Assembly: GCA_023229825.1 (NCBI GenBank)
Contig: JALNYN010000006.1
Span: 255-64,254 of the forward strand
Source: Minisyncoccota bacterium
GTDB taxonomy: Bacteria > Patescibacteriota > Minisyncoccia > Phycocordibacterales > CAIJYI01
Length of the DNA: 64,000 bases
Direction of reading: 5' to 3'
The notes beneath the pieces were generated by a model. It was given only the letters and a program-made list of their open reading frames with translations, had not been told where the DNA came from and searched no databases. Both the position numbers and the translations under genes were made by a program. The first letter of the stretch is position 1; each line of letters starts with the position of its first letter. Positions 95 through 50,912 of the stretch are shown piece by piece.

Positions 95-589
95 TCATTG
101 CATGATCCTTAAAAAAAAGAAAGCGACGATCATGCAGAAAAAAAAGAGAAGGATTCGACCCCACCAGACGAGTTTCCATGAATGTTTCAGCTCTAACTGT
201 TTGAATATCATTATGCAGATCGAAAACGTCAGAAACAAAATGGAGAAATAGAAAGTGAACAGTTCGCGAGTAAGACCGAAAGAATCGCTGTTGCCGGCAA
301 ATGAAATTGGAATTGCCACAATCGGGAGATACCAGAGAGCGAATTTCCGCCAGGCGAGATAGACTTCTTCGCGGAGAAAGTAGAGGGGGGGGAGAAAGAT
401 AAATAAACACAAAGAGAGTACTCCGATAGCCTGCAATAATTGATCGTACACACAAGTAAAGTACTTTAAACCCGTAATTATATCAAAATCACACATCCCT
501 TTTTTTGTGAGATTGTCGATTGTTATCAAGAAAATAATAATAATAAGTAAAATACCTGCTTTCAATAAAATCTTTTTTTTGTAATTCAT
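95..589 (-). CDS. hypothetical multi-pass membrane protein
   Basis: 164-aa ORF with several hydrophobic segments (LLIIIIFLITI, LSLCLFIFLPPLYFL, FSILFLTFSICIMIF); no recognisable catalytic motif. Confidence 0.45.
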   Translation of the reverse strand: MNYKKKILLKAGILLIIIIFLITIDNLTKKGMCDFDIITGLKYFTCVYDQLLQAIGVLSLCLFIFLPPLYFLREEVYLAWRKFALWYLPIVAIPISFAGNSDSFGLTRELFTFYFSILFLTFSICIMIFKQLELKHSWKLVWWGRILLFFFCMIVAFFFLRIMQ

Positions 590-626: not shown

Positions 627-3600
627 TTAATGTTTCTTTTTTGCGGGTTGAATAAACTCGTCCATTTGCGCGACAAGTTCGTCTATCACCGCGTTAATTC
701 TCAACGCCTGAATTTTCTCAATCTGCCACTTGTTCCCTATCTTTTTTTGAGAAAGAACCTGAATCTCTTTTTGCAAAACAACGAGTAATGCTTTTGTTGC
801 GATGTAATTCTTTTTCGCAAATTGTTTTTCTGCGACGGAAATTTGATTTAATAAAGAAGGACGAAGTTTTGAATCAAGTTTTTGAATTTCATTCTTTAAG
901 GTTTGGAAAGTGATAGTTTCTTTGTTCTCTTCCGTAAAAACGATTGAGTCAATTGTTCCGTTCCCATCGTTATCAAGAGCGAGTTCCTTTGCGTCATTTA
1001 AAGTACTCATTAGGAGCGTTGCTTTTGTTGAGGTGCTCACGGGTATATCGGTGAAGGTTTGCGATGCTTCTTTAACATCTCCTTGGTACTGTTCCAATTC
1101 AAGAGTAAATACGCCTGTTCCGATGCCTTGCAATTTGATTGTAGTGCTTGCTTCCAATTGGAAACCCAAATACTTCCCTTCTCCCATTTCTAAATAGTAT
1201 GAATTCGGCATTTCGGTATCATAAAAAGTGTAATTTGGAGTTGAGCTTGCTGAAATCCCTACATGGCCTCCTTGCTGGTTAAAAATATCTATCTGGACAG
1301 GAGATCGCAGAGAGAGACGCACTAGCTTTTTTAGACGAAACAAATCAAGCTGGCTTTTATCTGTTTTAATAAACCACAAATCTTTTTCTGGGTTTGGCGT
1401 GTTTTCGATAATTTTGCTTATCAAAGTTCTAGTGCTATCAACCTCAAGTATTGAAGCGTGAGATCTGTTTTTTTGAAGCCCGCCAAATAAAAAATAATAT
1501 GAGTTATTGTGTTCATTCAAATCCACAAAATACGTCTCCGTTGCCGTCGCCATTCCGATCTGGCTCGGCAAAACCACTCTGCCGTCACCGTCAAAAGTAA
1601 ACATCGGCTCAACATCAAGCTTACCTTCATCCCAGCAAAAGGTATTCATTCCCGCATTATTGCAGTACTGATGAAAATTTCCTTTGTATTCCAATCCGCG
1701 AATAGTGTCGGGAATTCCCCATCCGGCAATTTGTATAACGCGCATGCTTTTATGCGGAACCCAAGTGTCTATGTCATCATGAATTAATTGGGCGTTTTGT
1801 AACATATCCGTCCTCACCAATTTCGGATGGGAGAGATCATCATCCGGCGCCTGAGAACGACCGTAGTCTTTCCCGCTTAGGTAGTCCCGCAATCCCTCGT
1901 AAGCGGTTATCGTGGTTGTTCCATAATTCGTTTGATAAAAATCGAGTACCTTGGACGCATCATAAATCGGGTCACCGCTTAAGTTTCGCAGATTTTTGTT
2001 TTGGGAAATGATAGTTGTGTAGTTTTGGTTTTCGTCTATCACTCGTTCGATATATTTTTTTGACGGCAAAAGCGTATAGATCGATGGCATTTGCTGAGCG
2101 ACGCGCCGCCCTGTTTCTTTGTCGGACAATATTCCGCCCCACTCAGGAATATCTTCTTTTGTTCCATGTAAAAGCGTCGCGATCGCGTCCGGAGTGCCGA
2201 GTTGGGGTGAATCTACAAGAATAAGCATTTCGGTGCTGGTCGCGATATCGCTGTAGTCGTGAAGAATTTTTTTTGAGAGAAGTCCTCCCATTGAGTGCCC
2301 GATAATGGTAACCTTGCCCGTATCAGAGGTTTTGGCGAGGTTGCGAATTTCAGTGAGAAGATGCTCTTTGTCGGTTCCATATTTATCGTCATAATATATA
2401 TGCCCGTTTGGTGCTACATATCCATTGCTTAGTATTTGCGGAAAAGCGAGGCGCCAATCATAAGCGAGGACGCGGTAATCTTTCATCATCCCGTCAGTTT
2501 TCCATGTTTCTAGGTCTACAAGAAAACTTGAATATATGTTACTCGCCTTAAACCCGACATCTATAACCCCTGCATTTCCCCACTTGGTATATATGTCAGG
2601 GTTATCGCTTGAGCCGGCAGGTTTCATCATGAGTTCGTTGGTATCAGTCCACCAATTCGGTTCCCAAAGCTGGTCCTCGCAATCAGGATTGCTGCAGTCG
2701 TATTTGAATAGTCGCGACGCCTTAATCCCCGGCAAAAACGCTACATTACTATACCCTGTCATAAATATATACTCCGAGTTTTCCAGCTTCACCGTTCCGT
2801 CTTCCGTTTCGAAATGGTAATGATACGTTCCTTTCGAGAAGGTTAAGGTTCTTGAAAACGCTTCGCCGTTTGCGAGATTTCCATCGTGATATTCGATCGG
2901 AGTGGTTGTGGAAGTATCCGGAGCCATGCCGAGTTTGATCTCCCCCTGCGGACCGGTAAAGACAAGTCTGATGTGAGGGGTTGAAGCGGATGTGTCGGTA
3001 TACACGACTTTGAATAAGAAATTGGTTTTGTCCGCGGCCCCTCTTCGATCTTGGATGAGATCGTCTTCCCAGACGGAACCGTATTGCAAAGTTTTTTGAG
3101 ATGGAGAAACGGCATGTATCGGTCTGGCGTAAGGAAATTGATCGATAAGCGTTATTGGTACATCCGTCGGACGGTTCCAGTACAGTTCGTTTGTGATGGC
3201 GCTGAATTGATAAGGTGAATCGCAGAAACCGTCATTGGCGCTATCGGTACATTGATTATCGCTCAAGTAATTTCCTCCTTTCGGTAGTGGCGCTGAAATA
3301 GTAATGGTCGGAGCATAGGAAGATGCGGAAGACGGAAAAATGCTTTGTGTGTTATTCAAAAAATCATTTCGATAGATAGAGGTTGTTCCTTCATTTACGG
3401 CAACGAAATTCAATCCTATTCCGTTGTTTTCCACAATATTGTCGTGTACGGCATTCCGAACGTCCGTGCAATTCGTGGAAAAGTCTATACCGACAGCAAG
3501 ACCTTTTACTGTGTTTTCGGAAATATCCACTACGGTATCAGGAGATATCAGAGGCCGAAAACACGGTAATGACGGTACATACCAGGGACTCAATATACGT

Positions 3601-4685
3601 CCGAATGAAATGCCGGATGTGTTATCGCCTTGCGAAACAATAGTATTTTTACGCACGGATACGCTCTCAAAAATTCCCCCTCGTCCTCCGTAGACCATGA
3701 TCCCCGTGCCGTTTTGCAGAACATTAACGGTATTTCCTTCTATAATCACTTGTCTTGGTTCGCTGTCGAGAGCAATTGCATTAAGAATATTTAGAAATAC
3801 GTTATTTCGAATAGTAATGAAATATGGAATAAGCTCCGGATTTCCTCCATATACCCCGACATCGGTAATGTTTTGGAATGTATTATTGGCGATAATCGTG
3901 TTCGTGGATGAATTGTTAAATATTCCCTTTGCCCAGCTGTCAATGGTAAGATTTTTTATTGTGGTGTTATTTCGCCGAATATCCCCAGAACCTCTGAAAT
4001 ATATTGCACCCAAGTACGTGGTTCCGTCGCTTAATGTCGTATGTCCGTTTCCGTCGAGAGTAATGCCGTTATCATCAACCTGTATAGTCTCGTTTATATC
4101 TTGCGTGAGGGTGCAGGTTTTGGTTGATTGATCCCAAGCTCCGATCAAGGTACAGTCTCCTCCTGTCGCGTTATCTTTGATGAATTTTGTGCTTTTTTTA
4201 GTTTGGATGAAAACAAAATGATTTATCGCCATGTCTTGAGTATAGGTGTAGATTCCGTTATCGTCAGTGGTGAACTGCGTTAGGTTGTGATAATCGTCGT
4301 CATATTTATAGTAGGTTGTGTTTTTAAGAAAACCGGAGAGCGTAATTTGAGTTGTTGTTGCGTTGGTGGAAGTAGCTTTCTCTAATAGCATGGTCACCAC
4401 TTTCGGTTTTGAAGTGAAGTGAAGGTCGATGTTTTCGGTACTGTCGAGAGTGATGTTCAAATATTCGCTGTCGGTGATGGTGAAATGGGTGCCGATTCCG
4501 GAGATCTCGCCTTTTATTTGGAAGGGATCGTTTGGAATAAAATTCGACGGAGCAGGATTTAATGAGGCGAGCGTTTTTTGAGCGTACAAAATTCCGGCAA
4601 ATGTACTGCTGAGCAGCGCAACAATCGCCATTACAGTAAGAAAGATCTGACGGTGAATAGGTTTTGCCAAAAACTTTTTGTACAT
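627..4685 (-). CDS. large secreted multi-domain protein: N-terminal signal/anchor, right-handed beta-helix (pectate-lyase/NosD-like) region, LCAT/PGAP1-like alpha/beta-hydrolase lipase domain, C-terminal coiled coil
   Basis: 1352-aa ORF with N-terminal hydrophobic segment MAIVALLSSTFAGILYAQ. Repeated N-x-(V/I/F)-x-N / GG-containing beta-helix-like repeats (IANNTFQNITDVGVYGG, IRNNVFLNILNAIALD, IEGNTVNVLQNGTGIMVYGG). Lipase nucleophile-elbow GHSMGG (TIIGHSMGGLLSK) preceded by AYDWR, the (F/Y)DWR motif of LCAT/PDAT-type acyltransferases. Confidence 0.8.
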   Translation of the reverse strand: MYKKFLAKPIHRQIFLTVMAIVALLSSTFAGILYAQKTLASLNPAPSNFIPNDPFQIKGEISGIGTHFTITDSEYLNITLDSTENIDLHFTSKPKVVTMLLEKATSTNATTTQITLSGFLKNTTYYKYDDDYHNLTQFTTDDNGIYTYTQDMAINHFVFIQTKKSTKFIKDNATGGDCTLIGAWDQSTKTCTLTQDINETIQVDDNGITLDGNGHTTLSDGTTYLGAIYFRGSGDIRRNNTTIKNLTIDSWAKGIFNNSSTNTIIANNTFQNITDVGVYGGNPELIPYFITIRNNVFLNILNAIALDSEPRQVIIEGNTVNVLQNGTGIMVYGGRGGIFESVSVRKNTIVSQGDNTSGISFGRILSPWYVPSLPCFRPLISPDTVVDISENTVKGLAVGIDFSTNCTDVRNAVHDNIVENNGIGLNFVAVNEGTTSIYRNDFLNNTQSIFPSSASSYAPTITISAPLPKGGNYLSDNQCTDSANDGFCDSPYQFSAITNELYWNRPTDVPITLIDQFPYARPIHAVSPSQKTLQYGSVWEDDLIQDRRGAADKTNFLFKVVYTDTSASTPHIRLVFTGPQGEIKLGMAPDTSTTTPIEYHDGNLANGEAFSRTLTFSKGTYHYHFETEDGTVKLENSEYIFMTGYSNVAFLPGIKASRLFKYDCSNPDCEDQLWEPNWWTDTNELMMKPAGSSDNPDIYTKWGNAGVIDVGFKASNIYSSFLVDLETWKTDGMMKDYRVLAYDWRLAFPQILSNGYVAPNGHIYYDDKYGTDKEHLLTEIRNLAKTSDTGKVTIIGHSMGGLLSKKILHDYSDIATSTEMLILVDSPQLGTPDAIATLLHGTKEDIPEWGGILSDKETGRRVAQQMPSIYTLLPSKKYIERVIDENQNYTTIISQNKNLRNLSGDPIYDASKVLDFYQTNYGTTTITAYEGLRDYLSGKDYGRSQAPDDDLSHPKLVRTDMLQNAQLIHDDIDTWVPHKSMRVIQIAGWGIPDTIRGLEYKGNFHQYCNNAGMNTFCWDEGKLDVEPMFTFDGDGRVVLPSQIGMATATETYFVDLNEHNNSYYFLFGGLQKNRSHASILEVDSTRTLISKIIENTPNPEKDLWFIKTDKSQLDLFRLKKLVRLSLRSPVQIDIFNQQGGHVGISASSTPNYTFYDTEMPNSYYLEMGEGKYLGFQLEASTTIKLQGIGTGVFTLELEQYQGDVKEASQTFTDIPVSTSTKATLLMSTLNDAKELALDNDGNGTIDSIVFTEENKETITFQTLKNEIQKLDSKLRPSLLNQISVAEKQFAKKNYIATKALLVVLQKEIQVLSQKKIGNKWQIEKIQALRINAVIDELVAQMDEFIQPAKKKH

Positions 4686-4702
4686 ATGTTTGATGAGCTT
4701 TT

Positions 4703-4815
4703 AGCTTATAGGTTATAGGTTATAGGTTGCGACGATACTGGCGTTATAATCTATAAGCTAACAGCTAATAGCTATAAGCTATAAGCTATAAGCTATAAGC
4801 TAACAGCTATAAGCT
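4703..4815. repeat. inverted blocks of heptamer tandem repeats (TTATAGG x3 ... CTATAAG x~8) in the promoter region of the 1352-aa gene; same AGCTTATAGCTTATAG motif recurs at 38858-38875 and 50821-50836
   Basis: direct reading: agcttataggttataggttatagg ... ctataagctataagctataagctataagc; the two sides are reverse complements of one another. Confidence 0.8.
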
Positions 4816-4871
4816 TTCTCCAGTATATCAAAAATCACAGCCCCAGACGAAACAACACGTGGATAATTGAA

Positions 4872-5411
4872 CTATTCTTCGTCTGAAAGCAGGTACAAGC
4901 ATAAAAACATGAGCGGGATACCGAGTATGAATTCCGGAATGGCTAGTGTTTTGACGGTGTTATATATATGAGGCTCCACTCCGCCTGATCTCATATCGAT
5001 CCATGTTTTTGAAAAGAGTACATCGGAGTAAGAAAAAATAATAGCTCCAAGATTCATCACGATCATCAGGCTGATAAAGATCTGGGTGGATGAAAATCTT
5101 TTTATTTTACTGATCAGCCTCTTGGTAAAAACAAAAGAAAATATAAATATTGCCGGTATCAATATGACAAGTATATCAAAAGTATGATTAACCAAATGCA
5201 TCTGTTGAGAAATATAAAATCGTAAAATTTGAGAAAATATTATAAACAAGATCAGCCAAATTGAAAAATCGAACTGGTTCATCGGCTTGTCGATATCAAA
5301 AAAATCTTTATTGGTCATTTTCATAGAGAGGTGTTTAATGATTTTTCTAGTAAAAAATACGCGGGACATCAAACCCGGGAAAATTTCAGCCCGTCTATCA
5401 TTTTTCCCCAT
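4872..5411 (-). CDS. hypothetical membrane protein
   Basis: 179-aa ORF, 4-5 predicted TM segments (WLILFIIFSQIL, ILVILIPAIFIFSFVF, IFISLMIVMNLGAIIF). Confidence 0.45.
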   Translation of the reverse strand: MGKNDRRAEIFPGLMSRVFFTRKIIKHLSMKMTNKDFFDIDKPMNQFDFSIWLILFIIFSQILRFYISQQMHLVNHTFDILVILIPAIFIFSFVFTKRLISKIKRFSSTQIFISLMIVMNLGAIIFSYSDVLFSKTWIDMRSGGVEPHIYNTVKTLAIPEFILGIPLMFLCLYLLSDEE

Positions 5412-5509
5412 GATGAAAGATAGGCTGAAATTTTCCGCTGTTTGATATACGCGGACATATATACAGTATAAAACACAGGTGATAAAGTCCTGATAAAGTC
5501 TGACAAACC

Positions 5510-5538
5510 AAAAAAGCCTTAATTTTCAAGGCTTTTTT
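5510..5538 (-). terminator. rho-independent terminator downstream of idi operon
   Basis: hairpin aaaagcctt-aattttc-aaggctttt followed/preceded by T/A runs. Confidence 0.6.
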
Positions 5539-5562
5539 GGGTTTTTTAAAATTTTTTGTATT

Positions 5563-6096
5563 TTATCTTGAGTTATCCACAGGGCGGACTTGCAACAACA
5601 CGTCCGCAAATGAGATCTTAAACCAAGAAGTATACTGTTCGGGATGGACGCGCATATCTCCGAGTATGCTTTCGGGCGCCGCATATTTCCAACCGTCCGC
5701 CTCTTCCCTGTTCATCTCCGGAATACCGTCCCACACGCCGACCAAGACATGATCGTATTCATGTTCAGTGAGTCCGTTCGTGAATTCCGTCCGATACGTG
5801 AAAGAATATATTTCCGACAGAGGGCAATCAAAACCCATTTCTTCTTTGAGACGGCGATGCGCGGCATCTTCCGTACTTTCGCCCGGCCGAGGATGGCTGC
5901 AGCAAGTGTTCGTCCAGAGACCGCCGCAATGATATTTCTTTTTCGCGCGCTGCTGCAAGAGCATTTCGCCTTTCGATGAAAAAACAAAAATGGAGATCGC
6001 GCGATGGAGCTGTCCGCCGTTCTGATGCGCAGCTATTTTTTCGCAGATGCCGATCGGCGCGTCATTTTCATCGACGAGGATCACTTGTTCTTTCAT
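5563..6096 (-). CDS. idi: isopentenyl-diphosphate delta-isomerase, type 1 (Nudix fold)
   Basis: 177 aa; HRAISIFVFSSKGEMLLQQRAKKKYHCGGLWTNTCCSHPRPGES and EHEYDHVLVG match the type-1 IDI Cys/Glu active-site region; start overlaps upstream gene stop by 4 bp. Confidence 0.85.
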   Translation of the reverse strand: MKEQVILVDENDAPIGICEKIAAHQNGGQLHRAISIFVFSSKGEMLLQQRAKKKYHCGGLWTNTCCSHPRPGESTEDAAHRRLKEEMGFDCPLSEIYSFTYRTEFTNGLTEHEYDHVLVGVWDGIPEMNREEADGWKYAAPESILGDMRVHPEQYTSWFKISFADVLLQVRPVDNSR

Positions 6097-7691
6097 ATTT
6101 TGTTTTTGTAGGAATTAAGGAACATCTCGGATTTTTTCTGTTCCCTCTCCGCCTCGATCGCGGCCTTTTCAGTGATCGTAATGAAGTGAAGAAGCGGAGC
6201 CTCGTCTTCCAGCATTTCAAGCGATGAAAGCGCTTTTCGCGCGAGTTTCGCGTGCGCTTTTGCGAGTTTTGCATATTTTTTGAGCGTCGAAAACCAAAAG
6301 ATCTTTTTGAGTACTTCCCGGTCGGCTACGAGATCGATCACCGGTTTTTTCCAGCCCGACGCTTTAAGGTCGGCAAGCATCAGAACGACCACGGTACTCA
6401 GATGTCCGCGAGCCATGTCTTCTTCCCAATCGTGCGCGTCATCGTTCAGCTGCATGGCGATCAGATAATTTTTGAAATAGGCGATGAGATGTTTTACTTC
6501 GGCCGAATCAATGGGATACCCCATGTTGACGAGCATAGCGACCGGGCCCAAGATGTGTCCCGATGCCGGACGGTATTTATTTTCATACCGCGCATAATCA
6601 GGAAGGACGTCGGGGATCGTAAATTCTGAACCGCTGACTTTCGTACGGCAGTGCATGGTTTCCCACGTATTCGCACCATCCAGATCGTCCATGAGCTTTC
6701 TGAAAAATTCTGCGAATCCCGTCTTTGCCGGCAAAACGGTACTGAAAAGTTCAACATAGCTTCTCGCGAATAAATTGGCCGTCGGGAGAATATGCGGATC
6801 GGCCGCTTCGTCTTCATCCCAAAAATCATCATAAATAATGAACGCCGTCCAAAAGAAAATATTCGCCAATCCCATTTCCGCGATCAGTTCATCAGGAATT
6901 TTTTTTGCTTTCTTTCCGAGTGCTTGCTTCATGTAATAAGACATGAGCGACATTTGTTTGTCGGTGTTGCCGCGCATGGTATTTTTGATGCATTGCCGAG
7001 CAAAAGAACGAAGCTCGGGAGAAAGGGCGGAAAATCTTCTCTCCGCCGCCGCCATGATCTTATCCACCATCGCCTGTTCTCCTTCATTGAAGACGATTTC
7101 TCCGCTTTTTAATGCTAACGACGCATTGATATTTTTTTCCAACGAATGAAGATACAGCTCTTTTGCCGACACGACAGCCGGCGTCATTTCGACGCGAAAC
7201 GCCTCTGCGATCTTTTCTGCGGTGTCGAGCATCTCTGAATACTGGGCAAGGTTAGGCAGTTCAACGCCGAACGCCGACAAAAATCGCAAAATACTTGCAT
7301 TGGTCACCGGATCAATGTCGTTCTTTTTCTTTCCCTTTGATGGCAATTCTGAATAATACGGACCTCCCTCTTGGCTCTCGAGCGCCACTAATATATTTAA
7401 AATTTGCGCCAGCCATTCCCCGTCGATCAATTCTTTATCATATTCCGCGATCGCCGAAAGCGCGTAAAAATTCTCTCCGATATTTTTACTCAATTTTCCG
7501 TCAGCCGATCGCTGCGATACCAGAAACCGCGCGGTTTTACTCTTTTCCGCTTTTAATTCTTCTGAATTTTTTGAACGATCGAGAAAGGAAAGTACTATGG
7601 CAGAAGTTATCAATGATGGCGCTCCGGACTGGTCGGAGAAACTTCCGTCCTTTCTCTGTTCTTTTTTTATGCGTACTCTATGCTTATCCAT
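6093..7691 (-). CDS. isoprenoid-synthase-fold protein (polyprenyl synthase / class I terpene synthase-like) with ~250-aa N-terminal extension
   Basis: 532 aa; two Asp-rich motifs about 135 aa apart: FIIYDDFWDEDE (FARM/DDxxD-like) and MQLNDDAHDWEED (SARM QxxDDxxD-like / NSE-like); translationally coupled to idi downstream and to a histidine kinase gene upstream. Confidence 0.6.
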   Translation of the reverse strand: MDKHRVRIKKEQRKDGSFSDQSGAPSLITSAIVLSFLDRSKNSEELKAEKSKTARFLVSQRSADGKLSKNIGENFYALSAIAEYDKELIDGEWLAQILNILVALESQEGGPYYSELPSKGKKKNDIDPVTNASILRFLSAFGVELPNLAQYSEMLDTAEKIAEAFRVEMTPAVVSAKELYLHSLEKNINASLALKSGEIVFNEGEQAMVDKIMAAAERRFSALSPELRSFARQCIKNTMRGNTDKQMSLMSYYMKQALGKKAKKIPDELIAEMGLANIFFWTAFIIYDDFWDEDEAADPHILPTANLFARSYVELFSTVLPAKTGFAEFFRKLMDDLDGANTWETMHCRTKVSGSEFTIPDVLPDYARYENKYRPASGHILGPVAMLVNMGYPIDSAEVKHLIAYFKNYLIAMQLNDDAHDWEEDMARGHLSTVVVLMLADLKASGWKKPVIDLVADREVLKKIFWFSTLKKYAKLAKAHAKLARKALSSLEMLEDEAPLLHFITITEKAAIEAEREQKKSEMFLNSYKNKI

Positions 7692-11451: not shown

Positions 11452-12711
11452 TCATTGTGTACTCTTCAGTGCACAGTGGATGAATTTCTCTAAATTAATT
11501 TCAGACTGTTCCTTCTGTGGCGAGCTTCCCGTACCCATAAAAAACCACATAAAAACAGCGAGAGCGGCTGATGCCGTGAGTGCAGCAAAAGCAAAAGCGT
11601 AAGCGGGATCAAAGACCCATAATGCACCGGCGATCACCGAGGCGGGAAGATACATTAAACCGGTGACAAAATTGTACATTCCGATGGCTGTGGCCCGGCG
11701 GTCTTTTTCCATGTCGGAAATAAACGCCTTGCTCTGCGCTTCATCAATACTGTAAAAAATACCGAACAGCAAAAAGAGAACGATCACTTGCCATTTCTCC
11801 GAAGCAAAAACGAAGCCGAGAGACATGCTGATATACGCGAGATACCCGATCATTATGATATACTTTCGCCCGATCACATCGCCGAGCTTGCCGACTGGCG
11901 CCGATACCAGCACGAAAGAAATATTGAAAAGCGCGTAAAGAAGAACGACATCTTTAATGGTAAAGCCGATATCATACGCCTTCAAAAGAAGAAATCCAAA
12001 ACTGAAATACGCCAGAGAAAAAATACTCGCGGGAATAAGATACGTTTTAAATTTTTCACCCAAAGCCCCCCATGCTTTTCCAATGTCTTCTCTTTCGTGC
12101 GGAATTCCCGGACGATCTTTGGTCAGAGAAAGAACAAGAACGGAAAGTGCCGCCGCGATTATGGCAAAGATAAAAATAGTGCGGAACGTACCCGTGCTTG
12201 TTCCGAAACGAGCAAGTAAAAAATAGGCAATGAGCGGACCAACGACCGCACCCGATTTGTCCATCGCTTTGTGCACGCCAAAAGCATATCCCCTATTCCT
12301 TTCTTCCGCGACATCCGCAAGCCATGCATCCCGGGGAGGACCGCGAAAACTTTTTCCCAAACGTTCAATGATGCGGAACGAGGCGAGCAGAGCAACGGAA
12401 CTCCCGATCAAAAGCATTACTTTCGACAGCGTTGAAAAACCGTAACCGGCGAGAGTAAGCCGTTTCCTTTTTCCGGACCGATCCGATAGCCATCCGGAAA
12501 GGTAATCCAATGAAGACGCACAAAAGTCTGAAACGCCTTCTATCATGCCAAGGATCCCGGCTGAAGCGCCGACGACCACCGTAAAAAATATGGAAAATAC
12601 GGAAAAGATCGCCTCGGAACTGACATCCGTCAAAAAACTGACCAACCCGAGCCGAAGCACATCCGGATGCACATCTAAAAATCTTTTTTTCATAGTATTA
12701 TTCTTTTTCAA
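11452..12711 (-). CDS. MFS transporter
   Basis: 419 aa, 12 predicted TM helices, MFS signature-like LSDRSGKRKRL after TM2. Confidence 0.85.
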   Translation of the reverse strand: MKKNNTMKKRFLDVHPDVLRLGLVSFLTDVSSEAIFSVFSIFFTVVVGASAGILGMIEGVSDFCASSLDYLSGWLSDRSGKRKRLTLAGYGFSTLSKVMLLIGSSVALLASFRIIERLGKSFRGPPRDAWLADVAEERNRGYAFGVHKAMDKSGAVVGPLIAYFLLARFGTSTGTFRTIFIFAIIAAALSVLVLSLTKDRPGIPHEREDIGKAWGALGEKFKTYLIPASIFSLAYFSFGFLLLKAYDIGFTIKDVVLLYALFNISFVLVSAPVGKLGDVIGRKYIIMIGYLAYISMSLGFVFASEKWQVIVLFLLFGIFYSIDEAQSKAFISDMEKDRRATAIGMYNFVTGLMYLPASVIAGALWVFDPAYAFAFAALTASAALAVFMWFFMGTGSSPQKEQSEINLEKFIHCALKSTQ

Positions 12712-32253: not shown

Positions 32254-33390
32254 TTAAAATAGAACTAAATCTGCTTTAAATTCATCGGGAAGTCCACACT
32301 GATTATTGCCTAAACATTTATTTTGTACTAAAGTAATATCTTTTTTTGTAACATTTCCCAAAAGTTCCAACACTTTGAAAAAAACATCATTGTCTTTAAA
32401 ATGATTAATCTCAAATTCTGATATAAGTTTCTTTTTAATCAACCCTTTTGTGAATTCATCACATCTACTAAAAATAAATTTTAATTTGGGTTGATCAAGT
32501 AAAAATTCGCGAGGCTTGAATCGATTCGTTCCTTCATATAAGAAATCTATAATTTCCCGGTATAACGTATTTTTTTCTTTATATTGAAAAGTTAAGCTTG
32601 AATATAGAAACCCAACGACAGATCTGCCCGAATTTAAACACAACAAAGCGTGATGTCTCTCGGGGATGACTTTCTGAACATGTCTGTCCCCCATTTGATT
32701 TGATAGTTCGTCTATTGAATCAATTATACTTATGAGAGAGGATGTTAGTTTCTTTGCGTGAGCATTAGTTTTATTTTCTGGTGCCAAGTTCAATAAATTT
32801 TTTACTTTTTTATAGTCTTCACCAAGAGACCCTGTACCATATATTTCTTCACCTGTTATCCTCCTATAAATATCAAAGGTTGCTGCTTCAATTGAAGACC
32901 TTACGCAAGTCAAAACGCCGGAATAATCTCCTTTGTCAAAGAGTTTTTGAGATTTTGCAAGTTGTTCTTTTAAAAATTTGTATTGTATTTCAATATTTTT
33001 TTCAAATTCTGCGTGCTCTCCCAATTCTAAATCATTCTTGTTCATTTCCAAAACATTGATATTTGAATCATCTCTCCTTATGAGAAAAAATATTCCTTGA
33101 ATTTCTATGCTATTGTCGCCATGAGGATACAAATCAAGAACCGCATCTAAAATTATTTTTTTATCTTCAGTACTAATACTTTTACTTTTAACAAAGGCAT
33201 CTAATGGTAGGTATATATTGAAATAAGAAATTACTGAATTCATGTAACTTCCAAATTGTCCTGTTTGTTCAACTTCACTCTTTGCTCCATTAAGAAAATC
33301 TTGCAAATCATTTCTTTTTTGCTTTTCTAGTAATTTCTTTATTATTTGTATATCTTCATTTTCCATAAAATTACGAATCGTGGGTACCAA
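32254..33390 (-). CDS. hypothetical protein, second gene of AT-rich RT island
   Basis: 378-aa ORF starting 16 bp after the RT stop; Lys/Glu-rich alpha-helical; SNQMGDRHVQKVIPERHHALL segment; no P-loop or canonical HEPN Rx4-6H found. Confidence 0.6.
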   Translation of the reverse strand: MVPTIRNFMENEDIQIIKKLLEKQKRNDLQDFLNGAKSEVEQTGQFGSYMNSVISYFNIYLPLDAFVKSKSISTEDKKIILDAVLDLYPHGDNSIEIQGIFFLIRRDDSNINVLEMNKNDLELGEHAEFEKNIEIQYKFLKEQLAKSQKLFDKGDYSGVLTCVRSSIEAATFDIYRRITGEEIYGTGSLGEDYKKVKNLLNLAPENKTNAHAKKLTSSLISIIDSIDELSNQMGDRHVQKVIPERHHALLCLNSGRSVVGFLYSSLTFQYKEKNTLYREIIDFLYEGTNRFKPREFLLDQPKLKFIFSRCDEFTKGLIKKKLISEFEINHFKDNDVFFKVLELLGNVTKKDITLVQNKCLGNNQCGLPDEFKADLVLF

Positions 33391-33406: not shown

Positions 33407-34951
33407 CTACATTAAATCTGAATTAGCAAAAATATCAACCTCACTTGTTTTAGGAATCTTCGATATTTTCACTAACTTAGTTTTATTTATAAAGTTATTA
33501 TTATTCAACAGACCCATTAAATCAATATCCGTTATGAAATGATTACCAAAAATACTTTTTTTCTCTATTTGGGAAATGACACAACAAATCTTATCTTTAT
33601 AGTTTTTTGTCTTATCTACCTTAAAAAGACTTCTTTGTAACCAAATCTCATTATGACCAATATTGTTCATACTAAGAAGTTTCTCGTAAATACTATCGGA
33701 ATAATATTTTTGTTGCTTTTTATCTAGTTTTGGCAATAAATTAAATAGACTCACACAAACAACAGCAAAACACCTTGGGTTATTTGAAACTATATTAAGT
33801 AGAATGGTTATAAGAAGTTCAACCTCTCTTTTGTACCACTTCTTCTTTTTTTCATAAAATTTTCTCTGATTAAAATGTTGAAGCATTTTTAAAATAAAAC
33901 CGGAGTTAGGATACGATTTTGAAATATTTAGAACATCCAGCAAAAGCCTTTTAAGCTTATAAACATCTATCTCCTTATCTGTTCCGATATGATAAATTAT
34001 GTTATCTAATTTATCTTTTTTAATGGACATCAGGGTTATGTCTTCGCCAATTTCTGTCTTGTTCGTATTTAATTTAAAATTGAAGTCAGTCAAAATTTCA
34101 GATAAAATTTTTATAATTTTCTCGTTATCATTTTGTTCTTTTGTAAAAATTCTGTAGTCATCACGATACCTTATAATTTCATATTCGGTAATTTTTTCAC
34201 AGATTAATTTATCACCTAGTATCTTGTCGATATGAGTTAAGATAATTTCGGCGATAAAATCCATTAACACACTACCCTGAGGAATACCATTAGTTTGCCC
34301 ATTTTGAGTAGCACGCAACAAAAAATCTATATCATTTCCAACTAATGGCAGATCCGTTTTTTTACCTTTTGTTTGAAAGTTGTTTTTTATATTATCCTTA
34401 GCAATTTTTTTTGTGTGCAAAGCCCACGCAATGGAATGAGTATAAACTGAAGGATAACAATCCGCGATATCAAGTTTTGATATATATTTAAATTTTAGTG
34501 ATTTCTTAATGCTGTCTTTTTCGATCTCTTCTAAATATGAAAGTATTTGAGTCATTTTTTGTTTTTTGTGACTTTTCTGTTTTTTAAAAATTTGACAATA
34601 TTTTAACTTATCAACTTTGTTTTCTTGAAAATGTTTTTGAATAAGTTGCCAGTTACCCACAATGACATCAACCAGTTTAAGATAAATAATTGGATGTATG
34701 AGCTGAAATTTTCTCCACGCATATCTACCGTCTTTATTGTTGTAAATAAAGTATGAAGTCGTGTCTCCTTGGGCATTTAAAATATTAAATCCTACCTTAA
34801 ATTTACTAATTTCTTTTAAGAATTTTTTGAAATCAAAATACTCTGGTAAATCTAAATTGCAATAAGATTCAGACTCAAGAAAAAATCTTTTTGCTTCATC
34901 TTTAGTTAAATTTATAATAGGTTCTCTTTTCATGGCTGAAATTGGGTTCAA
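33407..34951 (-). CDS. reverse transcriptase of the Abi/defence-associated type (RT domain + ~200-aa C-terminal helical domain)
   Basis: 514 aa; RT motif A KLDIADCYPSVYTHSIAWAL, motif B' NGIPQGSVLMDFIAEIILTHIDK, motif C YXDD as IIRYRDDYRIF; no RNase H, integrase, maturase-X or endonuclease domain; low-GC, first gene of a 3-gene operon. Confidence 0.8.
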   Translation of the reverse strand: MNPISAMKREPIINLTKDEAKRFFLESESYCNLDLPEYFDFKKFLKEISKFKVGFNILNAQGDTTSYFIYNNKDGRYAWRKFQLIHPIIYLKLVDVIVGNWQLIQKHFQENKVDKLKYCQIFKKQKSHKKQKMTQILSYLEEIEKDSIKKSLKFKYISKLDIADCYPSVYTHSIAWALHTKKIAKDNIKNNFQTKGKKTDLPLVGNDIDFLLRATQNGQTNGIPQGSVLMDFIAEIILTHIDKILGDKLICEKITEYEIIRYRDDYRIFTKEQNDNEKIIKILSEILTDFNFKLNTNKTEIGEDITLMSIKKDKLDNIIYHIGTDKEIDVYKLKRLLLDVLNISKSYPNSGFILKMLQHFNQRKFYEKKKKWYKREVELLITILLNIVSNNPRCFAVVCVSLFNLLPKLDKKQQKYYSDSIYEKLLSMNNIGHNEIWLQRSLFKVDKTKNYKDKICCVISQIEKKSIFGNHFITDIDLMGLLNNNNFINKTKLVKISKIPKTSEVDIFANSDLM

Positions 34952-37000: not shown

Positions 37001-37044
37001 ATGATATCCTCCAGCGGGAGGATCCGCCCGCTGGAGGATATCAT
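37001..37044. repeat. long perfect palindrome atgatatcctccagcggg-agga-tcc-gcccgctggaggatatcat (family R5; second copy 38826-38853)
   Basis: direct reading; both copies flank the glutamine-synthetase-family gene. Confidence 0.8.
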
Positions 37045-37358: not shown

Positions 37359-38807
37359 ATGGCAAAAGACACCATTTTACCATCTACGGGGCTAAAAAAC
37401 TTCCTTGAGATCACCTATGATACCTTGGAAGAAATGAACCTTCGAGCGGCGGAACGGGCTGAAAAAGAGTCGCCGGAAGATCTTGAGAAAGAATATCGCG
37501 AATATCTCACGAAGGAAAAACGTTTGAAAGCGGTGACGCTCTGTTTCTCCGACATCGAGGGCCGTTTTCATATGCTCGATTATGACAAGCAGTATTTTCT
37601 CGGCGCTGCGGATAATCTTACTTTCGACGGCTCTTCGATCAAAGGTTTTACCGCACAGCAAGAATCCGATCTTCGTCTCGCCGTTGATTGGACGAGCATT
37701 CTTTGGCTCCCTTCCGATGTATTCGGACCGGGAAAAGTGATCATGTTCGCCAGCGTTTTGAATCGCGACAAAACACCGTACGAATCCGATTTTCGTTCGC
37801 GATTGGAACACCTCGTCGAAGACTTGAAAAAGAAAGGATTGACCGCATATCTCGCGGCAGAGGTCGAAGGTTTCCTCGTTGACGGATTGAATGCTGAACA
37901 GAATTTCAGCGAAGAGAACGGGTTCAAAATTATTTCGACCGGCGGTTACTTCCATTCCCTTCCGAAAGACCGATTGAAAATGTTTATCGACGCCGCAGCG
38001 GAAGCTCAAAGAGCGATGGGTTTTCAGAATGAAAAAGATCATCCGGAAGTCGCACCGTCACAGTTCGAACTTTGTTTCTCGTACGCTAATGTCGTGCGCG
38101 CCTGCGATCGCATTCAGCTCTACAAACTTATCTGCCGCCAGATCGCCGCGAATATGGGAATGACCGCGACCTTCCTTCCAAAACCGGTATCCGGCATCAA
38201 CGGCTCAGGCATGCACATGAATCTTTCTTTTGCGAAGGGCGGCGAAAATATTTTTTACAAAAAAGACGGCGAGGACGGACTCTCCCCTTTCGCATGGGAC
38301 ATCATTTCGCGCATACTCAATCATGCGCCCGAGCTTTCTCTCGTTCTTAATTCGAGCGTAAATGCGTATCGCCGGCTTGACCCGCACTTTGAAGCGCCGA
38401 ATCAGATCAAAGTTTCTTCGGTGGACCGCGGAAGCATGATCAGAATTCCCGCCGGAAACAAAAAGACCGCCCGCATCGAAGTGCGATCAGTCGCCCCTGA
38501 CGCGAATCCGTACATCGCAACCTTTGCGATCCTAAAAACGGCACTCGAAGGCGAACCGCTCAAAAAGGATGAAAGCAAACGCGACCGCCTGCGCTATCTG
38601 CCGGGCAACATCAACGACGCAATAAAATTGTACAAAGCAAGCGATTTCCTGAAAGGCGTCATGGGCGAAGGAGCTCACGAAAAATACGTAAAATTCAAAC
38701 AGGATGCCGCCGACCGCAGCCCGAAAGAACTCGGCGCGATCGTCAAAACCAGCGAAGTGGTCTATCACCACGAGATCACGAATCAGATGCTGTGGAATAA
38801 ATTTTAG
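37359..38807 (+). CDS. glutamine synthetase family protein (GS catalytic domain; GlnA/gamma-glutamyl-polyamine synthetase-like)
   Basis: 482 aa; FELCFSYANVVRACD, KPVSGINGSGMHMNLSF, NSSVNAYRRL, SMIRIPAGNKKTARIEVRS match GS catalytic-domain motifs. Confidence 0.85.
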   Translation: MAKDTILPSTGLKNFLEITYDTLEEMNLRAAERAEKESPEDLEKEYREYLTKEKRLKAVTLCFSDIEGRFHMLDYDKQYFLGAADNLTFDGSSIKGFTAQQESDLRLAVDWTSILWLPSDVFGPGKVIMFASVLNRDKTPYESDFRSRLEHLVEDLKKKGLTAYLAAEVEGFLVDGLNAEQNFSEENGFKIISTGGYFHSLPKDRLKMFIDAAAEAQRAMGFQNEKDHPEVAPSQFELCFSYANVVRACDRIQLYKLICRQIAANMGMTATFLPKPVSGINGSGMHMNLSFAKGGENIFYKKDGEDGLSPFAWDIISRILNHAPELSLVLNSSVNAYRRLDPHFEAPNQIKVSSVDRGSMIRIPAGNKKTARIEVRSVAPDANPYIATFAILKTALEGEPLKKDESKRDRLRYLPGNINDAIKLYKASDFLKGVMGEGAHEKYVKFKQDAADRSPKELGAIVKTSEVVYHHEITNQMLWNKF

Positions 38808-38972
38808 ACGAGTTTTTAGTTTTTTCCTCCAGCGGGAGGATCCGCCCGCTGGCGGAAGGTTATAGCTTATAGCTTCACGAAAAACAACAAAAAAGTTTCG
38901 ACTCGTGTCGAAACTTTTTTGTTATTCGCTAAAACCCGAAGGCCTGCCCTGCGTAGCTTTAGCGAAGCAGGG

Positions 38973-49987: not shown

Positions 49988-50815
49988 TTAGAGAACGCCG
50001 TTGCTTTCGTCCAAAAAATCGCCGAACAATTTCATCAGCCGCTTGAGTTCCTCCGATGTCGGAGGACAAACAATATCCCCCACTTTTCGTATCGGCACTA
50101 TTTTTGACGAAGTGCTCGTTAAGAAAACGCCGTCGTAGTCTTTCAAATCTTCGGGGCGGATATCTTTTTCTTCCACAGTAAAACCATTCTGCAAAGCGAC
50201 ATGAAGGACGGCTTTTCTTGTCACACCGAGCAGTATTTGCGATTCGCGCGGCGTGTAAATGGTATTTCCCTTTATCGTAAAAAAATTCGTTCGCGTTCCT
50301 TCCGTAATACAGCCGTTTCGATCGATAAGAGCAGAGTCGTAGCAATTCTTTCCGCGTGCGTCTCGGTACGAAAGATAACTCTGCAGCATATTGAGCGTTT
50401 TTGCGTGCGGGTAAAGACGTTCGTAGTACGTAACGGAAAGATCCACTCCATCGCGATACATTTTCTTGTCGGGAAAGAATGGATGAAAGCAAAGTATGGA
50501 GAGAAAAGCATCTTCTTTTTTCGGCCCGCCGATAAGGAGAACTTTCAGATTGTACGTTTTTTCGTCCGTTATTTTTACGAGATCAAGAACGGCTTTCTGT
50601 AATTTTTCACCTGAAAAATTATGCTCCAATCCGATGATGAGTGCGGAACCGAGCAGGCGTTCGATATGATGTTCCAAAAAATAGACGATCCCGTTCGAAA
50701 CCCTGATCGCTTCGTAGACTCCGAAACCATACGTGTACTCAATGCGCTCAAGAGAAACAACCGCTTGCTCAATCGGGCGTATCTCGCAATTTTTTGAATA
50801 GTATTTAAATGACAT
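49988..50815 (-). CDS. class IV PLP-dependent aminotransferase (branched-chain / D-amino-acid aminotransferase family)
   Basis: 275 aa; EGTRTNFFTIKGNTIYTP, LLGVTRKAVL, fold-type IV pattern. Confidence 0.85.
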   Translation of the reverse strand: MSFKYYSKNCEIRPIEQAVVSLERIEYTYGFGVYEAIRVSNGIVYFLEHHIERLLGSALIIGLEHNFSGEKLQKAVLDLVKITDEKTYNLKVLLIGGPKKEDAFLSILCFHPFFPDKKMYRDGVDLSVTYYERLYPHAKTLNMLQSYLSYRDARGKNCYDSALIDRNGCITEGTRTNFFTIKGNTIYTPRESQILLGVTRKAVLHVALQNGFTVEEKDIRPEDLKDYDGVFLTSTSSKIVPIRKVGDIVCPPTSEELKRLMKLFGDFLDESNGVL

Positions 50816-50912
50816 GCACGAGCTTATAGCTTATAGAAAAATAGCGACAAGTTTATCGTAGCAAAAAACGAAAAAAAATAATACCCCGCATCCGTGCGGG
50901 GTATAAGCTGCG

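Follow-up and report, generated by a model that had tools for sequence, protein, structure and literature searches.

The enzymes of the lecithin:cholesterol acyltransferase (LCAT) family, among them LCAT, LPLA2 and PDAT, are transacylases as well as hydrolases. Parts of the locus reported here also recall other described systems. Loci for contact-dependent inhibition (CDI) and Rhs proteins hold orphan cassettes of toxin tips and immunity genes, the Tle4 partner Tli4 is a soluble periplasmic protein, and the promoters of the Haemophilus influenzae adhesin genes hmw1A and hmw2A carry tandem 7-bp repeats whose copy number tunes expression. For the bacterial esterase EstA3, a C-terminal β-sandwich broadens activity toward long acyl chains, with BlEst2 as the closest structural match (PMC10816834). 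In this context, we analyzed a stretch of 64,000 nucleotides (nt) from a Minisyncoccota bacterium (GenBank assembly GCA_023229825.1, contig JALNYN010000006.1, positions 255 to 64,254), called the window throughout, in which a gene on the minus strand at positions 627 to 4,685 encodes a predicted exported lipase of 1352 amino acids (aa) and is followed by the gene of a small membrane protein, the partner.

The Patescibacteria, or candidate phyla radiation (CPR), account for a large share of bacterial diversity and generally do not make their own fatty acids and phospholipids. The way in which they acquire membrane lipids is recognized as an open question (PMC11665869, PMC7242380). CPR bacteria have incomplete lipid synthesis, are enriched in lysolipids and probably take lipids from other cells, possibly by way of a phospholipase A (PMC7242380), and a 2024 PNAS perspective described a mechanism of lipid ‘breakdown and uptake’ as not yet identified. 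Within a limited body of literature, no paper linking LCAT-type enzymes to Patescibacteria was found.

The comparison of the window gene with its relatives uncovers a large, previously unremarked family of predicted exported LCAT/LPLA2-type enzymes in Patescibacteria, usually paired with an unannotated membrane protein. Sequence and structural models suggest, in a tentative reading that we place a little below an even chance, that the window protein is an extracytoplasmic phospholipase A or acyltransferase of the LCAT/LPLA2 family that serves lipid harvest or attack on another cell's membrane. Experimenters gain two defined genes and one active-site serine to test, and with them a testable handle on how Patescibacteria deal with membranes they cannot build. 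Should the lipase prove to be no more than a common secreted esterase, what remains is a correction of domain annotation.

The predicted LCAT/LPLA2-type hydrolase

The open reading frame (ORF) begins with ATG and codes for 1352 aa. An identical protein is present in GenBank (MCK9351603.1 / MFA6493659.1), from metagenome-assembled genomes (MAGs) labelled Candidatus Paceibacterota, a group that NCBI now lists as the phylum Minisyncoccota, i.e. CPR/Patescibacteria. In databases it goes under ‘NosD domain-containing protein’ or ‘hypothetical protein’, and IMG lists it as ‘pimeloyl-ACP methyl ester carboxylesterase’, a generic α/β-hydrolase label; the family as a whole has only annotations of these three kinds. 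An earlier note, made from the letters of the window, had described an exported fusion of a parallel β-helix module with an LCAT-type lipase marked by the motifs AYDWR and GHSMGG. Both motifs are in place (aa 741-745 and 796-801), and the family match, the motif alignment and the models described below bear out the predicted fusion. The gene and the features of its C-terminal half are:

627..4685, minus strand: whole gene of the 1352-aa multidomain lipase, predicted to be exported, stop codon included (ORF list; identical public protein)
1377..2756, minus strand: LCAT/LPLA2-type α/β-hydrolase with helical cap insertion, aa 644-1103 (PF02450 above cutoff; LPLA2 in profile and Foldseek searches; model with a predicted local distance difference test score, pLDDT, of 90)
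2451..2462, minus strand: YDWR motif, aa 742-745 (invariant in 56 sequences; aligned to APYDWR of LPLA2)
2283..2300, minus strand: GHSMGG nucleophile elbow, aa 796-801, with Ser798 as candidate nucleophile (H797, S798, G800 and G801 invariant; aligned to AHSMGN of LPLA2)
1584..1586, minus strand: Asp1034 in GDGRV, candidate catalytic acid (G1033, D1034 and V1037 invariant; aligned to DGDGTV of LPLA2)
1458..1460, minus strand: His1076, candidate catalytic base (invariant; aligned to the His of SEHIEML in LPLA2)
930..1325, minus strand: C-terminal β-sandwich, aa 1121-1252, with the motif SPV and an acidic loop of the DxDGxG type, LDNDGNGTID (model; S1128, P1129, G1187 and D1238 invariant)
630..908, minus strand: three-helix tail, aa 1260-1352 (helices 1275-1290, 1294-1311 and 1324-1345 in the model, pLDDT >90)

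The best profile for the α/β-hydrolase segment is that of LCAT and not of a generic esterase family. Pfam PF02450 matches aa 718-1037 over profile positions 69-351 of 392 with 41.1 bits against a gathering cutoff of 21 (E 1.7e-10), homologues score between 37 and 87 bits, and the other Pfam families on the query are a marginal PGAP1 and generic α/β-hydrolase models below their cutoffs. A direct search of PDB sequences with the whole protein returned nothing significant, and a family profile was needed. The profile of 56 relatives, which are 26-62% identical to the query, finds human LPLA2 in the PDB with E 2.5e-7 and LCAT with E ~2e-4. Y742-D743-W744-R745, H797-S798-x-G800-G801, G1033-D1034 with V1037, and H1076 are invariant across these relatives. 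In the profile alignment AYDWR falls on APYDWR of LPLA2, HSxGG on AHSMGN (Ser165; the S165A entry 4x92 reads AHAMGN), GDGTV on DGDGTV and the family His on that of SEHIEML, so that the acid and the base that a lipase needs downstream of its serine both find a counterpart in LPLA2. The predicted Ser798-Asp1034-His1076 set and the YDWR motif are intact and conserved.

The predicted structure points to the same family. An AlphaFold2 model of aa 641-1352, calculated from the family alignment, reached a pLDDT of 90.3 and a predicted TM-score (pTM) of 0.90. Compared with the PDB by Foldseek, it has LPLA2 as its first match (4x92/4x97, E 6e-12, TM-score 0.66-0.68 of target), followed by LCAT (E ~1e-9, TM-score ~0.59) and then by Tle4, an antibacterial phospholipase of a type VI secretion system (T6SS; E 8e-9); BlEst2, PlaB, PhaZ7 and classic lipases come far behind. 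Sequence and model together place the catalytic domain in the LCAT/LPLA2 family (PF02450), and the 1352-aa protein is a new architectural variant within this known enzyme family. The coiled-coil tail claimed earlier consists of three predicted helices and follows a β-sandwich (aa ~1121-1252) that had been overlooked. The Pfam FIMAH cutoff is reached by the tail of one homologue and not by that of the query.

A large multidomain protein with Ig-like or sandwich domains and a β-helix, whose enzyme part is ignored by public annotation, might also be an adhesin of the cell surface in which the hydrolase domain survives as a catalytically dead binding module. The invariance of Ser, Asp and His and of the motifs around them, in 56 sequences that are 26-62% identical, is the pattern expected of a working active site and makes this explanation highly improbable.

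Family size and architectures

The earlier note regarded the YDWR branch as rare in bacteria, a view that the size of the family contradicts. A profile search through 1.84 billion proteins, with representatives at 50% identity, matched 2,992 representatives with E <= 1e-30 and 6,669 with E <= 1e-10. Of the ~3,000 clusters at the stricter threshold, those that carry a name come almost entirely from Patescibacteria. The top 150 matches all span hydrolase, sandwich and tail, and their N-terminal extensions range from 0 to ~720 residues. For the hydrolase block alone there are more than 100 clusters at 90% identity, all from Patescibacteria lineages where these are named, and GTDB species genomes contain at least 120 confirmed lipase loci, almost all labelled as Patescibacteria groups. 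The window holds a single lipase copy.

A census of modules covered 80 reference loci with 82 ORFs that contain the lipase module. The sandwich accompanies the lipase in 77 of these ORFs, and the β-helix is carried by three. Other N-terminal mountings of the lipase unit include SpaA_4 and MBG domains, and PKD occurs among the variable adhesin-like modules. Because only three of the 82 have the β-helix, the conserved unit is the lipase with its sandwich, with or without the tail, and the β-helix fusion is one of several ways in which it is mounted.

Two occurrences carry unexpected taxonomic labels. The lipase unit is found on MAG contigs labelled Bdellovibrionales (L050, CAZQLN010000002.1, 178 kb), where a weak partner match (E 2e-4) follows it, and on a 2.9-kb MAG contig labelled Thermosynechococcus (L066), on which no partner was detected. 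They may reflect mislabelling, contamination or transfer outside the Patescibacteria.

The N-terminal carrier

The N-terminal half of the protein comprises a putative export signal, a β-sandwich, the β-helix and a less well-defined linker:

4578..4685, minus strand: putative export signal or signal-anchor at the N-terminus, aa 1-36, with MYKKFLAKPIHR and then 24 uncharged residues (sequence reading and family comparison; long helix in the model)
4191..4523, minus strand: N-terminal β-sandwich, aa 55-165, common to all members of the β-helix family (50-60% identity to proteins with other payloads; alignment consensus; pLDDT >90; module hidden Markov model, HMM, E 1e-49)
3171..4190, minus strand: NosD-like right-handed parallel β-helix, aa 166-505 (NosD of NCBIfam below cutoff; NosD and Beta_helix of Pfam in homologues; model)
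2757..3098, minus strand: β-rich linker domain with a low-confidence model, aa 530-643 (pLDDT 40-80; module HMM E 1.5e-24)

Export, as the earlier note proposed, is a sound inference from the N-terminus, which reads as a basic n-region followed by 24 uncharged residues. Across β-helix proteins with unrelated payloads (P0002-P0026) the signal region is kept as MKKKFLELPIHHK and 22 uncharged residues ending in FAGIFYA, then KK. This conservation appears to exceed what is usual for Sec signal peptides and possibly points to a signal dedicated to sorting or anchoring.

An AlphaFold2 model of aa 1-644, again based on the family alignment (pLDDT 77.9), shows a long N-terminal helix, a confident β-sandwich (aa 60-161), a parallel β-helix (aa 166-500) and a poorly modelled β-rich region (aa 531-643). 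The parallel β-helix that the earlier note recognized in the window protein agrees with this model and with the NosD (PF05048) and Beta_helix matches of Pfam, which exceed their thresholds in homologues; the NosD match of the query itself stays below. From the signal through the sandwich to the first helix turns (aa ~1-270) the protein is 50-60% identical to many Patescibacteria proteins that differ in their C-terminal parts. NlpC/P60, M23, C39-like and M6-like protease domains, a metallophosphatase and PKD/Ig arrays all follow the same N-terminal module, so that one module is combined with different C-terminal enzymes as in polymorphic toxins. With lipases, cell-wall hydrolases and peptidases among its payloads, the β-helix module looks like part of a modular toolkit for breaching another cell's envelope.

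Fold comparisons of the β-helix are one argument for a different substrate. RbmB and alginate lyases, capsule depolymerases and phage tailspikes stand beside NosD among the matches, and the one PDB match below E 1e-3 is a GH87 glucanase (1.9e-5, TM-score 0.30), the others being generic. A module folded like polysaccharide lyases, glucanases and capsule depolymerases could bind a polymer that the hydrolase deacylates, for example polysaccharide or peptidoglycan in acetylated form, or a polyester like polyhydroxybutyrate (PHB). The PHB depolymerase PhaZ7 and generic lipases and esterases among the weaker fold matches of the hydrolase (E ~1e-3 to 1e-4) would fit, as would the carboxylesterase name in IMG. 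Against such an activity, no Pfam family other than LCAT is well above its cutoff, the E-values of LPLA2 and LCAT are better by at least six orders of magnitude than those of PhaZ7 and the classic lipases, both LCAT-specific motifs, YDWR and GDxTV, are invariant, and most family members lack the β-helix. We consider a non-lipid esterase quite improbable.

The downstream partner gene

The lipase gene is followed after 37 nt by the start of a second ORF:

95..589, minus strand: partner gene, 164-aa predicted polytopic membrane protein with a C-x(n)-C loop, W80, F83 and S123 (homologous ORF downstream of the lipase elsewhere; alignment)

In all five close loci (L001, L002/3, L004/5 and L006 being the named ones) the ORF that comes directly after the lipase is a homologue of the partner. 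The one that follows the closest relative of the lipase, P0002 in L001, is 48% identical (E 1e-31), and homologues also follow lipases that are ~33% identical to the query as well as a stand-alone lipase without β-helix. A census with a once-iterated profile included the 70 reference loci with at least 450 nt of downstream sequence and placed the partner immediately after the lipase gene in 51 of them. There were four non-adjacent matches, all of them extra copies further downstream in the same loci.

Partner proteins have a median length of 136 aa and a common layout. A basic N-terminus, a first transmembrane segment (TM1), the C-x(n)-C loop and TM2 are followed by a motif (R/K)(D/E)E-V-F-x-x-W-x-K-F-A that leads into TM3, a Gly-rich loop, TM4 with I-S-L and a basic C-terminus. 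By the positive-inside rule, both termini would face the cytoplasm, and the Cys loop and a single short loop would be the only exposed parts. The window protein has no match in Pfam, NCBIfam, PADLOC or PDB sequences; within the family, Pfam gives a weak DUF202 in five of 30 members and no consistent match. The database relatives number 62, all unnamed proteins of 72-149 aa.

Two peculiarities concern the window copy. Its aa 137-164 add a hydrophobic segment (SWKLVWWGRILLFFFCMIVAFFFLRIMQ) at the C-terminus that none of the 29 aligned relatives has, and a second GenBank record annotates the protein as 118 aa. The window contains a single partner copy, and the second public contig ends 240 nt past the window edge.

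Fusions of the β-helix with NlpC/P60 have a downstream gene of their own, which encodes ~200 aa with an N-terminal transmembrane segment and a weak PsbP_2-like domain (L009:6187-6792, L010:6116-6712). The two copies are homologous to each other (E 2e-18), and the downstream gene is specific to the type of C-terminal domain in this comparison of two payload types, lipase and NlpC/P60. Because stand-alone lipases have the partner and NlpC/P60 fusions another gene, the partner goes with the payload and not with the β-helix carrier. Docking of the partner to the helical tail found no support: in the 70 loci, the tail module is not associated with the presence of the partner (Fisher p = 0.05, opposite sign).

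Cassette-like turnover beside the pair

Two of the related loci hold additional copies and fragments. In L002:9133-11535 (= L003:5347-7749) the lipase and partner genes are followed by a 281-aa ORF, which matches only the sandwich and tail modules, and by a second and a third partner. In L001 the pair is followed over 4568-7438 by a 56-aa ORF copying the last 56 residues of a lipase tail, then by a second partner, a 277-aa protein with a partner domain, and a fragment of the mid domain. The displaced fragments of L001 and L002 match β-sandwich, helical-tail or mid modules and never the catalytic domain, and orphan cassettes of toxin domain plus immunity gene were not found at these loci.

Partner paralogues of the same locus are mosaic. 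Their C-terminal halves are nearly identical (74/75 and 73/78 residues), and their N-terminal halves, made up of TM1, Cys loop and TM2, are ~40% identical (22/55 and 21/52). The break lies at the cytoplasmic motif before W80.

These observations bear on an antibacterial role. A contact-dependent phospholipase presented on a surface stalk could act in the manner of the Tle enzymes, with the membrane partner as its cognate immunity protein and the β-helix family as a set of proteins akin to polymorphic toxins. Several lines of evidence point this way: the likeness to Tle4 (Foldseek E 8e-9; profile E 5.6e-5), a weak Tle3 match of Pfam in one relative, the variety of payloads on one N-terminal module, and an own downstream gene for each payload type examined (four transmembrane segments for the lipase, one plus the PsbP_2-like domain for NlpC/P60). 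Tandem partner paralogues beside displaced 3' fragments of the lipase (L001, L002/3) and the mosaic of a hypervariable exposed half and a nearly identical one would fit as well. The displaced fragments, however, consist of non-catalytic sandwich and tail only, the catalytic domain of the lipase is conserved and not polymorphic, many lipases of the family lack the partner, and VgrG, PAAR and Hcp are missing among the called genes around the window gene and its relatives. To our knowledge, the characterized Tli immunity proteins are soluble periplasmic proteins or lipoproteins rather than four-helix membrane proteins with ~35 exposed residues. A dedicated toxin with its immunity protein is therefore unlikely in our judgement, although killing and feeding may be a single act, in which case this explanation and lipid harvest overlap.

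The same genes can be read in a more domestic way. The enzyme might remodel the envelope of its own producer, either by generating lysolipids that give the membrane of so small a cell its curvature or by transferring acyl groups among its own lipids, lipoproteins or glycolipids, and the partner would then be a cofactor or present the substrate. The breadth of the family in Patescibacteria (~3,000 clusters at 50% identity), its single copy in the window, and the tight linkage to an integral membrane protein are in line with work on the own membrane, and the transacylase activity of the LCAT family would lend itself to it. The high lysolipid content attributed to CPR membranes (PMC7242380) fits too. 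Yet the long β-helix stalk and the variable adhesin-like N-termini (SpaA_4, MBG, PKD) point elsewhere, the same stalk bears peptidoglycan hydrolases and peptidases, and cassette turnover together with a hypervariable partner loop is unusual for housekeeping genes. Judged from hit lists only, the lipase unit is also not universal in the reference genomes. On balance such a role is improbable.

A possible route to lipids of other cells

If the protein is an extracytoplasmic phospholipase A or acyltransferase directed at other cells, its action can be pictured as follows. After Sec export it would be retained on or near the cell surface, where the rigid β-helix module may span or bind the layer of glycans that separates the bacterium from a neighbouring (host) cell. 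From a diacyl phospholipid in that cell, the lipase domain would transfer one acyl chain to its Ser798 and then hand it on either to water, as a phospholipase A that releases lysolipid and fatty acid, or to an acceptor hydroxyl, as an acyltransferase. The lipid-auxotrophic bacterium could use the products, and the host membrane would be weakened. The likeliest role of the small membrane partner is to protect the membrane of the producer itself; docking of the enzyme or uptake of the product is less probable. Action on host lipids is what we infer from this combination of features.

A wider version of the proposal, which we regard as somewhat unlikely, holds that the lipase unit and the four-helix partner form a two-gene module across Patescibacteria that strips acyl chains or lysolipids from the host and spares the producer's own membrane. 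The module would then be the mechanism that the PNAS perspective lacks, and the hypervariable loop of the partner and the cassette turnover would record an arms race or the matching of enzyme and protector.

Several points weigh against an enzyme that feeds on or attacks other cells' lipids. Sequence and fold would fit a hydrolase as well as an acyltransferase, and a phospholipid as well as another ester. Neither an LPXTG motif nor a C-terminal anchor was found in the protein sequence, so that retention at the surface is presumed. The predicted fold matches of the β-helix are generic and give no hint of a specific glycan, and no gene for lipid uptake or re-acylation was recognized among the annotated neighbours. 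In 19 of the 70 loci no partner was detectable; several of these contain a different small polytopic ORF, and in a subgroup the lipase is followed by a ribosomal-protein-L10-like gene. Finally, some Paceibacteria parasitize archaea. The ether lipids of archaea would not be substrates for such an enzyme.

The neighbours of the gene are an isopentenyl diphosphate (IPP) isomerase, a two-component system, a major facilitator superfamily (MFS) transporter and unknowns. As a candidate for an LplT-like lysophospholipid flippase the nearby MFS transporter was set aside, its NCBIfam matches being generic efflux and MFS models far below their cutoffs. A reading as a defence system was likewise dropped, since the PADLOC models matched neither the lipase nor the partner nor the upstream membrane protein.

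The upstream heptamer arrays

The earlier note drew attention to an unusual inverted heptamer array at the promoter. The array is present, and it is not specific to this gene: it is absent in L001 and recurs both in the window and in at least 120 contigs. The elements upstream of the start codon are:

4745..4815, minus strand: distal heptamer array, ~10 units of AGCTTAT on the sense strand (Tandem Repeats Finder score 93; repeat finder; absent from L001; identical in a second assembly)
4696..4728, minus strand: proximal heptamer array in inverse orientation, three ACCTATA units and AGCTAAAAGCT, ending 10 nt before the ATG (repeat finders)
4822..4866, minus strand: promoter-like block, TTATCCAC ... 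TTTTGATATACT, with the extended -10-like TGATATACT (alignment with the region upstream of P0002 in L001)

The distal array has 10.1 units and is separated by a 16-nt spacer from the proximal one; the two arms of 33 nt are 88% complementary. The block shared with L001 reads TTATCCAC ... TTTTGATATA[A/C]T, and this conserved stretch is a putative promoter. In L001, which has no heptamers, the ATG follows ~40 nt after the block, and the arrays of the window gene amount to an extra ~100 nt between block and start codon. As a stable RNA hairpin the array is not distinctive (fold z-score -1.26 against shuffles), and as a consensus sigma-70 promoter it was rejected, with no site in 4686-4871. The copy number of the heptamer is identical in two assemblies, which is evidence neither for nor against phase variation.

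Matches to two heptamer units with at most two mismatches number 15 in the window, against 0.2 expected by chance. One copy (50821-50836) is a TATAAGC array 5 nt ahead of the ATG start codon of a gene for a class IV aminotransferase (49988..50815, minus strand). Another (38857-38877) comes just after a glutamine synthetase gene (37359..38807, plus strand) and has a GC-rich palindrome on one side and a terminator-like hairpin on the other. GC-rich 16-nt repeat or palindrome units (ATCCGCCAGCGGGAGG) flank the glutamine synthetase gene on both sides (37006-37039 and 38826-38856).

At least 120 metagenome contigs carry tandem (AGCTTAT)n/(TATAAGC)n arrays of four exact units or more (median six units, maximum 75; GC content 0.3-0.6), for example at L092:14442-14469, L102:6635-6662 and L101:855-882. 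An analysis of 80 of these loci (L092-L171) with 89 arrays found none inside an ORF of at least 150 aa and 51 of the 89 within 200 nt upstream of an ORF start; inverted pairs were seen in five of the 80 loci. Some arrays lie 1-17 nt before the ATG of genes that, read from their N-termini, resemble those of EF-Tu, RecA, the ribosomal proteins L22 and L17, and TrmD. A link to the lipase family was rejected, as no ORF adjoining the metagenomic arrays matched any module. The heptamer array is a recurrent intergenic element that is uninformative on the lipase, and it may be a promoter- or leader-related element of some group of organisms.

Other features of the window

The segment 5563-7691 (minus strand), upstream of the lipase, holds a gene for type 1 IPP isomerase (164.9 bits for NF002995, cutoff 127) and, overlapping it by 4 nt, an ORF of 532 aa. 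The latter has no Pfam or NCBIfam family and contains two Asp-rich motifs, IIYDDFWDEDE and NDDAHDWEED, which we take to recall isoprenoid synthases. This ORF might encode an isoprenoid enzyme, in an organism from which no lipid synthesis is expected. Two further ORFs on the minus strand, 12698-14458 (586 aa) and 25809-28076 (755 aa), have no Pfam or NCBIfam family either; the former belongs to the same co-directional gene run as the lipase. Between 32001 and 34000 the GC content dips to 0.294, compared with ~0.44-0.48 elsewhere, over the ORFs 32254..33390 and 33407..34951 (minus strand). The region may be a foreign or fast-evolving island.

Comparison with known systems

The repeats upstream of hmw1A and hmw2A share with the window array the 7-bp unit and the position between promoter and start codon of a large surface-protein gene. 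The window array differs in being bipartite and inverted, in having the same copy number in two assemblies, and in that its heptamer also occurs near housekeeping genes.

NosD provides a match in the N-terminal half, with a right-handed parallel β-helix, the NosD-type repeat and the C-terminal cap motif GGNYW...DG.CD.PY, and its structure (PDB 7osf) is among the fold matches of the β-helix (TM-score 0.45 of target). The window protein nevertheless scores 52.6 bits against a cutoff of 300 for NCBIfam TIGR04247, nosZ, nosF, nosY and nosL are absent nearby, and the β-helix is here one module of a multi-enzyme family of surface proteins. The public name NosD describes the fold, not the function.

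The order of α/β-hydrolase and β-sandwich is shared with BlEst2 of Bacillus licheniformis (PDB 6wpx) and EstA3 of Thermoanaerobacter tengcongensis, and the Foldseek alignment with 6wpx extends over most of the model (E 5e-5). The superposition is weak (TM-score 0.36-0.38 of target), and these lipases and esterases belong to another hydrolase subfamily and have no helical tail, partner gene or β-helix.

With the CdiA-CT/CdiI pairs of CDI and with Rhs proteins, the window family has in common a constant N-terminal module, interchangeable enzymes and a downstream gene specific to the payload, as well as displaced 3' fragments that each come with another copy of the downstream gene, and partner paralogues that are mosaic and in part hypervariable. 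It departs from them in that the displaced pieces are without a catalytic domain and the catalytic domain itself is conserved.

Tle4 (TplE, PA1510; PDB 4r1d), whose immunity protein is Tli4, has a related α/β-hydrolase fold and shares PG(I)xxSxL and HSMGG in the profile alignment, a conserved small gene stands right after the lipase, and a role against another bacterium's membrane is plausible for the window enzyme too. The TM-score is 0.36 of target, however, the window partner is polytopic, and none of the neighbourhoods holds T6SS genes; we know of no T6SS in Patescibacteria.

The closest relatives remain LPLA2 (PLA2G15) and LCAT. They provide the best Pfam family and the best fold match, and YDWR, GHSxG, GDGxV and the His are aligned. 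By the secondary structure of the model, the window hydrolase has a helical insertion that may correspond to their cap, placed past the strand behind the nucleophile and ahead of the one that precedes the Asp; an additional subdomain separates the first strand from YDWR. Sequence identity, in contrast, is only 13-15%, and Ser and Asp are 236 residues apart in the window protein, compared with ~162 in LPLA2, where we take the Asp that follows Ser165 to be residue 327. The window enzyme also differs in its setting: it is bacterial and presumably extracytoplasmic, it is built into a 1352-aa protein with β-helix, sandwiches and helical tail, and its gene is paired with that of a membrane protein.

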